Origin: Prevotella sp. | Lineage (GTDB): Bacteria; Bacteroidota; Bacteroidia; Bacteroidales; Bacteroidaceae | Reading direction: 5' to 3' | DNA length: 64,000 nucleotides | NCBI GenBank assembly: GCA_017960525.1 | Contig: JAGCZA010000049.1 | Location: forward strand, 8,911-72,910 | Shown: in pieces, positions 19,771 through 35,848 of the stretch | Position numbering within the stretch: position 1 is the stretch's first letter | Layout: every line of letters begins with the position of its first letter | The notes under the pieces: model-generated | What the model was told of the DNA's origin: nothing | The model's database searches: none | What the model saw: only the letters and a program-made list of their open reading frames with translations | Translations under genes and position numbers: made by a program

Positions 19771-21909
19771 ATGAAACTACACCTGACGAGAAACGCTATA
19801 GCCGTCTGTGCCTTTCTGATGGCCAGTACCACCGCTGGGGCGCAGGGCGGAGTGACTAATACCTCGAAATGCGAAAACGCCCGTATGACCAGCGTGCCCC
19901 TGACTGCCGTGCAATGGACGGGTGGCTTCTGGGGCGAGCGCTTCGACGTGTTGAGCAAGACGAGCGTGCAAAGTATGTGGGAGACGTGGCAGAGTGCACA
20001 GGGCAAAGGCTTCAACAACTTCCTCGTGGCCGCTGGCGAGAAGCAGGGCGAGCACCACGGCCCTCCCTTTCACGACGGCGATATGTACAAATGGCTAGAG
20101 GCCGTCGCCTCGGTCTATGCCATCACCCGCGACCCCCAGTTGGAGCAGATTATGGACCGCTTCATTGGACTGGTGCAGAAGGCGCAACGCGCTGACGGAT
20201 ATATCCATACGCCTGTGATTATCAAGGAACGGTTAAGAGTTGAGAGTTCAGAGTTGAGAGACAATAGTTCCTCGTCAGAGAACAACGACAATAATACTAA
20301 AGTCTCTCAACCCGTCGGCACCGCCGTTGGCACCAAAAACGATGCTGCCTTTGAGAACCGCCTGAACTTCGAGACCTACAACTTGGGGCATCTGATGATG
20401 GCGGGCATTATTCACAAACGGGCAACGGGGAAGACCACGCTCTTCGATTGTGGCGTGAAGGCCGCTGACTTCCTCTACGACTTCTGCCAGCGGGCGCCGG
20501 AAGAACTGGCCGGAAACGCCATCTGCCCCTCGCACTATATGGGCGTGGCCGAACTTTACCGTGAGACGGGCAACAAGAAATACCTCGACCTCCTGCGGCA
20601 GTTTATCGACATCCGTGGGATGGTGAAAGACGGCACCGACGACAACCAAGACCGTATACCCTTCCGCCAGCAGTACCAGGCAATGGGCCACGCTGTCCGC
20701 GCCAACTATCTCTATGCAGGCGTGGCCGACCTCTACTTGGAGAGCGGCGAGGAGCAGTTGATGAAGAACCTCACCAGCATCTGGCAGGACATCACCCAGC
20801 GGAAGATGTATATCAACGGCGCTTGCGGTGCCCTCTACGACGGCACATCGCCTGATGGCACCAACTACAAGCCCGACAGCATCCAGAAAGTGCACCAGAG
20901 TTACGGGCGCCCCTACCAGTTGCCACAAAGCACGGCTCACAACGAGACCTGCGCCAACATCGGCAATATGCTGTTCAACTGGCGGATGCTCCTTGCTACA
21001 GCCGATGCAAAGTATATGGACTTGGTAGAGAACTGCCTGTACAACAGCATCTTGCCCGGCATTTCGCTCAACGGCGAGAGTTACTTCTACACCAATCCCT
21101 TGCGACTGAGCGATGAGTTGCCCTACACCCTGCGCTGGCCGAAGGAGCGCAAGAAGTACATCTCGTGCTTCTGCTGTCCGCCAAACACACTGCGCACCCT
21201 CTGCGAGGCCCAGGACTACGCCTATACGCTCACCCGTCCGAACAGTACTGGCACCATCTACGTGAACCTCTTTGGCACCAGCCAGTTAAAAGGGAAATTG
21301 GATGATGTGGGCGACATTGTGCTCACCCAGCAGACTGACTATCCCTGGAGCGGTCACGTCACCCTGACCATCGAGAAACTGAAGGCTCCACGCCACCACA
21401 AGTTTGCCATCGGCCTGCGCTGTCCTGAGTGGGCAGCCGGTGCTTCCTATACCGTCAACGGCCAACCGCAGTCCATCAATAAGGAGAAGGGCTACTTGGT
21501 GGTAAACCGCAAATGGAAGCAGGGCGACGTCATCAGTTTCGACATCCCGATGGAAACGCGCATTGTGGAGGCTAATCCGCTCGTTGAAGAGAGTAGGGGA
21601 CAAGTGGCTGTGATGCGAGGCCCCATCCTCTATTGTCTGGAAAGCAATGACCTCAACGGCACCGACATCGACAACGTCACGATTCCCGTCACAGCACAGT
21701 TCCGGCCAGTCGAGGTGAACATCGGTGGCAGCCGGATGATGGCCCTCGAAACCGAAGCATACGTGCGGGGTGAGGATGACTGGAAGGGCACGCTCTACCG
21801 CAATGTCGCCACGAAGAAGGCAAAGAAGACCGTGCGCCTCGTTCCCTATTATGCCTGGGGAAACCGAGGCAAGAGCGAGATGACCGTGTGGATGCCTGCC
21901 TCTTACTGA
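19771..21909 (+). CDS. GH127 beta-L-arabinofuranosidase-like glycoside hydrolase
   Basis: DMYKWLEA, GHAVRA, HNETCANIG and CFCCPPN; signal peptide. Confidence 0.85.
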   Translation: MKLHLTRNAIAVCAFLMASTTAGAQGGVTNTSKCENARMTSVPLTAVQWTGGFWGERFDVLSKTSVQSMWETWQSAQGKGFNNFLVAAGEKQGEHHGPPFHDGDMYKWLEAVASVYAITRDPQLEQIMDRFIGLVQKAQRADGYIHTPVIIKERLRVESSELRDNSSSSENNDNNTKVSQPVGTAVGTKNDAAFENRLNFETYNLGHLMMAGIIHKRATGKTTLFDCGVKAADFLYDFCQRAPEELAGNAICPSHYMGVAELYRETGNKKYLDLLRQFIDIRGMVKDGTDDNQDRIPFRQQYQAMGHAVRANYLYAGVADLYLESGEEQLMKNLTSIWQDITQRKMYINGACGALYDGTSPDGTNYKPDSIQKVHQSYGRPYQLPQSTAHNETCANIGNMLFNWRMLLATADAKYMDLVENCLYNSILPGISLNGESYFYTNPLRLSDELPYTLRWPKERKKYISCFCCPPNTLRTLCEAQDYAYTLTRPNSTGTIYVNLFGTSQLKGKLDDVGDIVLTQQTDYPWSGHVTLTIEKLKAPRHHKFAIGLRCPEWAAGASYTVNGQPQSINKEKGYLVVNRKWKQGDVISFDIPMETRIVEANPLVEESRGQVAVMRGPILYCLESNDLNGTDIDNVTIPVTAQFRPVEVNIGGSRMMALETEAYVRGEDDWKGTLYRNVATKKAKKTVRLVPYYAWGNRGKSEMTVWMPASY
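20237..20313. repeat. Heptamer element with inverted ends, in-frame in GH127
   Basis: GAGTTGA GAGTTCA GAGTTGA GAGAC ... ACTAAAGTCTCTCAACCC. Confidence 0.75.
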
Positions 21910-21954
21910 AAAAACGTTCCCAAGAAAAAACTTTTGCACATTTTCGGGAAAATA

Positions 21955-33360: not shown

Positions 33361-35848
33361 CTTCAGGAATGTCAAATGTAGTGGGGTTTTTCACCAGTTC
33401 GTTGGTGAGGGCGAAGTTCCAAACGTCCTGAATGTTCTCTACATAGTGGAAACTGACACCCTTCAGGTACATGTCGGGGATTTCGAGGATGTCCTTCTCG
33501 TTCTCCTGACAGAGCAAGATGTCGGTGATGCCGGCACGTTTGGCGGCCAGGATTTTCTCCTTGATGCCGCCCACGGGGAGCACCTTTCCGCGTAGCGTAA
33601 TCTCGCCTGTCATTGCTGTGTTCTTGCGCACCTTGCGCTGTGTCAGGGCCGAGGCGATTGAGGTGGCGATGGTAATGCCCGCCGACGGGCCGTCCTTTGG
33701 CGTGGCCCCTTCCGGCACATGGATATGGATGTTCCAGTGCTCGAAGATGCGGTAGTCGATGCCCAGTTTGTCGGCATGGGCCTTCACGTACTCCAATGCC
33801 AGCACGGCACTCTCTTTCATCACATCGCCCAGATTGCCCGTCAGCGTCAGTTTCTGGCCCTTGCCTTTCGAGAGCGAAGTCTCAATGAAGAGTATCTCGC
33901 CGCCCACGCTGGTCCACGCCAGACCCGTCACCACACCGGCATAGTCGTTGCCCTGGTAGATGTCGCGGTAGAAGGGCGGCTTGCCAAGCAAATCCTCCAA
34001 CTGTTGAGGGTTGAGAGTTGAGGGTTGAGAGACTTTAGTCTTGCTGGTGTCAGGACTGACGTCACCAATCTCTAAATTCTGGTGGCTTATCGCCCGTTTG
34101 TACGCCAATTTGCGCATCGCCTTGTTGATTTGCTTCTCCAACTGGCGGACGCCGCTTTCGCGGGTGTATTGCTCGATGATTTTCTCGATGACGGCTTTGG
34201 TGAATTTCGGCTTGTCCTTCAAGGTCTTTAGACCCGTATTCTCCAGTTCGCGGGGAATCAAGTGACGCTTTGCGATTTCAATCTTTTCCTCTGTGATATA
34301 GCCACTTAACTCAATAATCTCCATACGGTCGAGTAGGGGCTTGGGAATGGTTGAGAGGTTGTTGGCCGTGGCGATGAAGAGCACCTTTGAGAGGTCATAG
34401 TCCACCTCCAAATAGTTGTCGTGGAAGGCTGAGTTCTGCTCTGGGTCGAGCACTTCGAGCAGGGCTGATGCAGGATCGCCGTTCACCGTCGCCTGCGTCA
34501 CTTTGTCTATTTCGTCAAGGATGAACACGGGATTGCTGGAGCCGGCTTTCTGGATGCTCTTCAGGATGCGGCCTGGCATTGAACCGATGTAGGTGCGGCG
34601 GTGGCCGCGAATCTCTGCCTCGTCGTGTAGTCCGCCCAGCGACATCCTCACGTATTTGCGCTTCATGGCGGCGGCGATGCTCTTGCCCAGGCTGGTCTTG
34701 CCCACGCCCGGAGGGCCGTAGAGGCACAGGATAGGGCTTTTCAGGTCGCCACGCAGCGACAGCACAGCCATATACTCCAGGATGCGCTCTTTCACTTTCT
34801 CCATACCGTAATGGTCGCGGTCCAGTATCTTTTGCGCCCGTTGCAAGTTCAGGTCGTCTTTGGTATATTCGCCCCAGGGCAGGCCGACGAAGGTCTGCAG
34901 ATAGTTGAGTTGGAGGTTGAACTCAGGCGATTGCGACGACGTCTGGTCCAGTTTCTCCAGTTCCTTCACAAAGACCTTCTCCACCTCTTCCGGCCATTTC
35001 TTTTTCTTTGCCTTCTCGACCAGTGCCACACGCTCTGGCGACGACTCGCCGTCCTCGCTCATGGCGGCCTTCATGTTCTTGATTTGCTGTTGCAGGAAGT
35101 AGTTCTTCTGCTGTTCGTCCAAATCTTCGCGGGTCTTGTTGCGTATCTCCGCCTTCAGCTTCTGCAGGTTGATTTCGCGGTTCAGGGCCTTCATCGCCCC
35201 AAAGAGCCGCTCCTTTACCGACTCCACTTTCAGCAGCCCAATCTTTTCTTTGCAGGAGAAAGGCATGTTGGAGCAGACAAAGTTGAGCGCCATCACATCG
35301 TTGTTGATGTTATGAATGGCAAACATAGCCTCGTCGGGTATGTCGTCGCTGATGCTGATATACTGGTCGCTCATCCGGCGCAAGTCGTCGATGGCCGTGC
35401 GCCACTCCTTGTCGTGCTTGTCGGGCATCAGTTCAGGGATGGATTCCACGTTGCCCGTCAGGTAGGGGAATTCGCTGATAATCTTGAGGAGTTTCAGCCG
35501 GCCCATACCTTGCACAATGACGGTCACCATACCGTTGGGCAGGGTGAGTTGCTTGAGCACTTTGGCATAAACACCGCAATCGTGCAGGTCGCCCTCGACG
35601 GGCATTTCTATATCGGGGTCTTTTTGGCAGACAATGCCTATCAGCGCGTTCTGTTTCTCAGCCTTGCGCACCAGTTTCATGCTCGACTCGCGGGCAATGA
35701 TTATGGGGGCCACCACGCCGGGAAAAAGTACAATGTTGCGCACCGGCAAGATGGGCACCTCATTGGGGCAGTTGTCTTCCATCAGGGAGTTTATGTCGCC
35801 TTCAATATCGGCAATCATTGAGAATGCCGAGGTGTTTTGTTCATCCAT
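33338..35848 (-). CDS. lon: ATP-dependent protease La
   Basis: [15 protein letters not shown] and PKDGPSAG. Confidence 0.96.
34003..34039. repeat. Heptamer element in-frame in lon
   Basis: (GTTGAGR)x4 GACTTTAGT; encodes [12 protein letters not shown]. Confidence 0.8.

Follow-up and report, generated by a model that had tools for sequence, protein, structure and literature searches.

A dispersed repeat with heptamer arms probably accounts for a peptide shared by GH127 and Lon in a Prevotella genome

Two unrelated enzymes of a Prevotella sp. share the peptide TKVSQP, and we put a probability of about 85% on this likeness being a by-product of a DNA repeat common to their genes. The window analyzed here is a 64,000-nucleotide stretch of contig JAGCZA010000049.1 (positions 8,911 to 72,910). 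It contains a gene for a 712-residue protein of the GH127 (beta-L-arabinofuranosidase) family (19771-21909, + strand) and a gene for Lon protease (33338-35848, − strand; 836 residues, or 826 from the second ATG). Each has a copy of a short palindromic element with arms of tandem heptamers. The presence of the same motif in frame in both genes is confirmed, and the broader reading, that one element family resides in frame in many unrelated genes, is supported. The GH127 protein has the Pfam domains PF07944, PF20736, and PF20737, its homologues are named GH127, and it matches PDB 5mqo (E = 7e-295); the Lon protein has the Pfam domains of Lon and matches PDB 6u5z (E = 2e-203). Names of homologues of both proteins point to Prevotella sp., and the closest loci by similarity are from assemblies of rumen and other ruminant guts. 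The genome is a metagenome-type draft assembly of 3.97 Mb in 146 contigs with 53% G+C and 94% completeness.

The 18-mer ACTAAAGTCTCTCAACCC is located at 20296-20313 (+) and 34022-34039 (−) and is read as T-K-V-S-Q-P in both open reading frames (ORFs), confirming the positions and frames given in an earlier note on this DNA. Shuffling the window gave an expectation of 0.01 matches and none of 100 shuffles yielded two, which rules out a chance origin of the pair. The earlier note had also asked whether the motif occurs elsewhere. The 18-mer itself is found only twice in the whole genome, but the 16-mer ACTAAAGTCTCTCAAC, the part of the identity owed to the element family, has seven genomic copies (0.002 expected) and the 13-mer AAAGTCTCTCAAC has 17 (0.12 expected). 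The last two nucleotides have separate sources in the two genes. In GH127, the first 16 nt are the right core of the element plus one unit, and the final CC belongs to a native Pro codon because orthologues read ...GP-VGT at this point. In Lon, the final CC opens the next heptamer, CCTCAAC. Heptamers adjoin both motifs, as claimed, with arrays detected by Tandem Repeats Finder (TRF) at 20232-20259 and 34003-34030.

The element is built as (GTTGAGA)n-GAC-[G/T]TTAGT, a loop, and ACTAAAGTC-(TCTCAAC)n. Its arms are mutually complementary heptamer arrays and thus terminal inverted repeats, as in miniature inverted-repeat transposable elements. Between the arms is a non-repetitive core, consisting of GAGAGAC-[G/T]TTAGT, a loop near TCCTTCYGCCAGCAAAAC, and then ACTAAAGTCTCTC. 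Both halves of the core are kept at ∼16 loci with a common asymmetry, in that one side has GACGTTAGT and the opposite side has ACTAAAGTC. Tandem 7-nt units that vary in copy number are also the hallmark of heptanucleotide repeats, but the conserved core exceeds what defines that class. A clean copy at C110 has a predicted fold of −18.2 kcal/mol (z = −4.8), and arms of other copies co-vary, for example at C33. Because slippage cannot yield a shared non-repetitive core, the copies are best explained by descent from a common sequence.

Copy 1 of the element is 78 nt in size (20233-20310, +) and forms 26 codons of the GH127 gene, read as LRVESSELRD-NSSSSENNDNN-TKVSQ, in agreement with the core pattern of the family. 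It has four left units (GTTAAGA GTTGAGA GTTCAGA GTTGAGA; 20232-20259, TRF), GAC-AATAGT, an enlarged loop (GAGAACAACGACAATAAT), ACTAAAGTC, and one right unit. The inverted ends described previously are present, GTTGAGAGAC at 20253-20262 and GTCTCTCAAC at 20302-20311, and the strand folds with a perfect 10-bp stem (z = −2.2). The insert was placed by alignment to PDB 5mqo, and that of Lon by alignment to PDB 6u5z; the AlphaFold2 model of the GH127 protein is too poor to place it (mean pLDDT of 62, with several other segments below 50). The loop involved, flanked by IIKER and (P)VGTAVG, is hypervariable, with no constant length or sequence across all 33 aligned proteins (32 of them orthologues), and in its element-coded form it is 11 residues longer than that of PDB 5mqo. 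The element is confined to the protein cluster of this genome. A GH127 homologue of 85% identity lacks the insert and reads STATAPVGFADGGGP there. Judged from these alignments, the GH127 copy is species-specific and, with four good left units and a perfect stem, young, though lopsided.

Copy 2 spans ∼77 nt (34003-34079, −), corresponds to ∼25 residues of Lon, and is evident from its sequence and from the gap in orthologues. On the coding strand, a decayed left arm, AATTTAGAGATTGGTGAC-GTCAGT, is followed by the loop CCTGACACCAGCAAG, ACTAAAGTC, and the units TCTCAAC CCTCAAC TCTCAAC CCTCAAC, which on the + strand are the four GTTGAGG/GTTGAGA units at 34003-34030. The site is in the linker that joins the ATPase lid to the protease domain, where PDB 6u5z is 15 residues shorter and 19 of 19 orthologues from relatives (56–76% identity) lack 16 residues. 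Closer homologues, 85–91% identical in this region (P0123, P0124, P0126, P0127, and P0130), carry an insert of the same family at the same site, and the DNA of these homologous inserts has the same right junction, which makes the insert older than this species. P0126 (7+7 units, −38 kcal/mol) and P0127 (4+4 units; GTTGAGC pairs with GCTCAAC on matching arms) still have an intact hairpin. It is decayed in P0123, P0130, and this genome, in which the Lon copy folds without a long hairpin. The Lon copy is thus old, with a left arm that has decayed in this genome, and since it is also shared with relatives, the Lon and GH127 copies are not equally fresh evidence of insertion.

Both sites have also received other palindromic inserts. 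Such inserts are in the GH127 loop of P0010, P0011, P0014, P0017, P0021, P0035, P0087, and P0118, and at the Lon linker of homologues P0128-P0141, P0182, P0218, and P0226. Elsewhere, the Lon site is occupied by a GGTGAGG/CCTCACC heptamer type or by GC-rich types that read PNPSPGEGS...LPWGGxGGG, and it is empty in some lineages, for example in P0162, with KRQLNGIEPVDMKITPSSLEDLL. A further GC-rich type among the Lon and GH127 sites reads LPAGRGV...SPPSQGGAGGG. From these comparisons, the Lon linker and the GH127 loop appear to be hot spots for several element families.

Reading frames of the element suggest what is conserved in it. The right core is read as T-K-V-S-Q in ∼9 ORFs and as L-K-S-L-N in ∼11, and this use of two frames implies constraint at the level of DNA and not of peptide. 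The proposal that the element donates the same peptide thus holds for GH127 and Lon but not for the ORFs that read the core as LKSLN. On the strand given above, the left core is always read as E-L-R-D-x-S; its other two frames meet TGA or TAG. In five arrays, the GTTGAGA strand is read inside ORFs, and the in-frame units have TCA (four) or TTA (one). In contrast, out-of-frame units have TGA in 11 of 14 cases and none of 71 intergenic units has TCA. The TCA at 20248-20250 of GH127, 477 bases past the ATG, is in the only one of the four units with a codon of the ORF at its positions 3-5, as had been noted before, and follows the general rule that only stop-free copies survive in genes. Selection would purge insertions that break a frame or a fold, and TGA in an in-frame unit would be mended to TCA or TTA.

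Across the genome, there are 53 TCTCAAC-type arrays of at least three units, of which ∼38 are in frames with long open flanks on both sides. Long ORFs with the core number 14 or more, those of GH127 and Lon among them, in support of the earlier inference that one element family resides in the coding sequence of unrelated enzymes. Eight further host ORFs were scanned, and clear Pfam domains are present in seven. Hosts include RNase R, an M16 peptidase, GH31, a GH2 beta-galactosidase, an FGGY kinase, glycogen synthase, and a ClpA-like ATPase, each with full domain matches. At the insert site, the FGGY kinase exceeds four homologues of 44–46% identity by 15 residues. In total, TRF identified 513 period-7 arrays of 149 unit types. 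Heptamer arrays as a whole are depleted in genes, as 176 of 513 are at least 80 codons deep in ORFs versus 62% of random segments, but the TCTCAAC family does not show this depletion (24 of 36).

Several observations weigh against the reading of a dispersed element. No target-site duplication is visible at GH127, Lon, or the other copies, where boundaries fade into units. No transposase was found. Within any species there is no filled and empty pair at the DNA level, and no movement was observed. Among 434 heptamer arrays, just 85 have an inverted partner within 120 nt, which means that many do not form hairpins. A comparison of orthologues had been expected to reveal an indel. It does so as a gap at the Lon site, but in GH127 the 26 element-coded residues take the place of a native loop of ∼15 residues and are not a plain addition. 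Coding status of copies was taken from open frames without a gene caller, and the draft state of the assembly (146 contigs, 94% complete) also calls for caution.

Two explanations of the shared peptide do without a dispersed element. Heptamer runs could have grown in place by replication slippage from chance seeds, with the likeness of GH127 and Lon being a case of convergence. Heptamer arrays are indeed very common, unit numbers vary between orthologous copies, and (TCTCAAC)n arrays, which for the most part lack the core, are present in 58 of the 121 genomes of the genus. However, what GH127 and Lon share is the non-repetitive core, which is not a native conserved sequence of either protein in relatives, and the 16-mer in seven copies, the conserved loop, and the asymmetry of arms are beyond slippage; an origin in place is very unlikely. 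Even harder to credit is that TKVSQP and its flanks are a selected peptide module, such as a linker or a protease or modification site, gained by convergence or recombination. The frame and peptide are the same in both genes and both are in exposed linkers. On the other hand, in 11 other ORFs this DNA encodes LKSLN, and it is also found outside of genes, Lon orthologues differ at the position (KKVPKP, TKVTKP, SKVSQL, and SKDSKL), and the P is native in GH127 but derived from the element in Lon. A third explanation accepts the repeat but holds that hairpins are kept in genes for a function in RNA or DNA, such as a pause, processing, or, like rRNA intervening sequences, a target for RNase III, with the peptide as the price. 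Co-varying arms and near-perfect hairpins (−38 kcal/mol) in two of five orthologous Lon inserts, with the same variant units in both arms (P0126 and P0127), are in its favor. Matched arms, though, are also explicable by hairpin-templated repair or gene conversion, the hairpin is lost in three of five Lon copies including that of this genome, the stem in GH127 is only 10 bp, and relatives do well without inserts. We therefore regard a kept function as unlikely, though less so than the other two.

If the shared peptide does derive from a dispersed repeat, the module would have been copied from a master sequence and would not have arisen in place. Arms would afterwards gain or lose units and remain matched, or would decay, as has happened in Lon of this genome. 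A search for a parent insertion sequence with the same ends, in which arm ends were paired over distances of up to 4 kb, recovered no transposase gene between the ends and a single enclosed gene, on contig C60 (C60:10370-10822). It encodes a 122-residue protein that belongs to PF05635 (E = 2e-33), the family of 23S rRNA intervening-sequence proteins, and that also matches bAvd weakly; the cassette is located between parA and parB. The gene is flanked by (GTTGAGA)n-GAC-TTTAC and GTAAAGTC-(TCTNAAC)n. Its arms and its junctions, GAGAGAC-TTTA and TAAAGTCTCT, are the same as those of copies lacking an ORF, and the junction is kept in five orthologous cassettes of other species. The GH127 and Lon copies have no ORF and have only arms and junctions in common with the cassette. 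Orthologues of the gene at 80–89% identity retain both the arms and the position between parA and parB. In one orthologous cassette, from a metagenome-assembled genome of Prevotella from red deer (L051, 200-400), the left arm has ∼20 GTTGAGT/GTTGAGA units and the right arm has four, which shows that arms can grow very unevenly.

The association of PF05635 genes with heptamer arms is general. This genome has ∼10 such genes, all with inverted tandem arms and each with its own unit. The arms of four of them are the four commonest of the 149 heptamer families. Exact matches to the genome's own arm units account for 158 of 502 arrays, versus nine of 502 for a control of 15 arm units from other genera. 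The layout of gene plus arms is present in most of 28 loci from other Bacteroidales genera and in 58 of 67 loci of a species-genome collection, including Acidobacteriota and Cloacimonadota, with a period of 7 dominant. Across 30 genomes of the genus (L198-L227), the parA-parB spacer ranges from 8 nt to ∼460 nt and is empty (8–26 nt) in many. It has an ORF-less heptamer hairpin in G002 (TCTCAAC family), in G007, and, of one type, in L210, L211, L213, and L216. It bears the gene in this genome and in the five orthologous cassettes, which are from the species-genome collection.

Other data argue against PF05635 genes driving the spread of the arrays. Among 120 sampled genomes of the genus, none has a close orthologue of the C60 gene. 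Genome G018 of the same genus is 99% complete in three contigs and has at least 20 array hits of perfect or near-perfect (TCTCAAC)n, yet PF05635 genes are absent from it. In seven other relatives rich in arrays, PF05635 genes are present but bear different arms. Presence and absence across the genus thus do not support a strict dependence of arrays on PF05635. Array-rich genomes without a cognate gene suggest that the gene is not needed to keep arrays and that it may be a lodger.

What copied the module can be addressed only tentatively. The copying agent may possibly be machinery tied to the PF05635 four-helix-bundle gene, acting by analogy as the REP-associated tyrosine transposase (RAYT) does for repetitive extragenic palindromic (REP) sequences; alternatively, another enzyme of the host or of another element would do the copying. 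A stronger version, in which PF05635 genes and heptamer-armed hairpins are one self-propagating system and each gene recognizes its own 7-nt unit and seeds ORF-less hairpins, is doubtful. Under it, seeded hairpins would come to rest at gene junctions and also, in frame, within sequence coding for loops of housekeeping proteins. It is plausible instead, though we do not favor it outright, that the PF05635 gene is a lodger in the loops of pre-existing heptamer hairpins, an explanation that is silent on how short elements spread. The three states of the parA-parB spacer (empty, with an ORF-less hairpin as in G002, and gene-bearing in this genome and five relatives) fit lodging, as does G018 with arrays and no gene, and a random choice of hairpins would favor the commonest families. 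Yet a lodger does not readily account for the four commonest of 149 unit types being the arms of four PF05635 genes, for the excess of own-arm matches over units of other genera, or for the recurrence of gene plus arms across phyla. Two other drivers were considered and set aside. A RAYT (Y1 transposase) is represented by PF01797 in one degenerate fragment without heptamer flanks (C28:1268-1489). Spread by reverse transcription was considered because PF05635 resembles the DGR protein Avd; there is no PF00078 gene in this 94%-complete genome.

Additional repeats are present in the window. A TCTCAAC-type array at 61733-61781 (+; CTCTAAA CCCTCAA CTCTCAA CCCTCAA CACTCAA TTCTCAA; TRF) makes up the entire spacer of two neighboring genes. 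Its first unit contains the stop codon of ORF 60764-61738, and 6 nt past the array, at 61787, the next gene begins. Two short runs of TCTCAAC units at 58530-58590 (+) are within the first 30 codons of ORF 58507-60753 and are read as SSLNSP and ELSTLNS. The second commonest heptamer family forms a CATTGAC/AATGGTC hairpin inside an ORF at 6287-6370, and the PF05635 gene at C26:9716-10030 has arms of this same unit. AGTGAAG-type arrays at 18498-18537 and 19260-19299 are located at the ends of two adjacent ORFs; this unit also flanks a PF05635 pseudogene with an internal TAG (C19:12090-12398). Tandem arrays with a period of 22 nt are at 5824-5903, 17445-17524, and 49547-49629, usually with three to four copies, in which a constant half (GGACGAACCAA) alternates with an array-specific half. 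The 11-mer GGACGAACCAA occurs 455 times in the genome (∼2 expected) and in 144 of 217 period-22 TRF rows.

Selfish DNA that is translated within essential genes has so far mostly been treated as a curiosity of Rickettsia. Here, three or more different hairpin families have rewritten the Lon linker and the GH127 loop among sister lineages, and heptamer repeats may be a steady source of variation in loops and linkers of core enzymes. In Prevotella, the repeats can also confound gene calling, the assignment of orthologues, and metagenomic binning. The arms of PF05635 genes and the three forms of the parA-parB spacer provide a testable lead to the role of the intervening-sequence protein and the source of heptamer repeats. 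Were the self-propagating system real, rRNA intervening sequences, much of the heptamer-repeat DNA of bacteria, and the peptide inserts would have one origin. Our literature search found no description of in-frame heptamer hairpins in Prevotella and, beyond a note on Coxiella, no report that ties PF05635 to heptamer arms.

The elements resemble several known systems in part. The short tandemly repeated repetitive sequences of cyanobacteria are heptanucleotide repeats. In Xanthomonas and Nostoc, GGGNATC heptanucleotide repeats form tandem arrays of 7-nt units, preferentially with about four copies (PMC4692102). Like the Prevotella elements, heptanucleotide repeats of bacteria are dispersed, located at gene junctions, and variable in copy number. 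Unlike the in-gene copies of Prevotella, they are reported to be under-represented in coding regions, and they are not described as palindromic modules with a core or a link to a gene family. ORF-bearing intervening sequences of 23S rRNA with an S23p/PF05635 protein are also known from Leptospira. The C60 cassette is like these in having a PF05635 gene in the loop of a long stem, but the GH127 and Lon copies lack an ORF and are in protein genes instead of rRNA. In the 23S rRNA intervening sequence of Coxiella burnetii, tandem heptamers (GACAGAT) are beside the S23p ORF (PMC4990558). As in REP/REPIN-RAYT systems, a single-copy syntenic gene is between inverted copies of a repeat scattered in the genome, and distinct gene copies go with distinct repeats. 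In contrast to RAYT, the flanked gene encodes a four-helix bundle without known catalytic activity, and the Prevotella repeats enter coding sequence.

The closest likeness in behavior is to the Rickettsia palindromic elements (RPEs), reportedly described by Ogata and colleagues in 2000. RPEs are short repeated palindromic DNA located between genes and in frame in intact unrelated genes, where they add peptide segments at tolerated surface sites; we know of no transposase for them. The Prevotella elements are likewise short palindromic repeats in frame inside intact, unrelated protein genes, and we claim a likeness of behavior, not membership. Hosts of RPEs are obligate intracellular alphaproteobacteria, whereas the host here is a free-living member of the rumen Bacteroidota, and the Prevotella elements differ further in having arms of tandem 7-nt units of variable number and a form that bears a gene.

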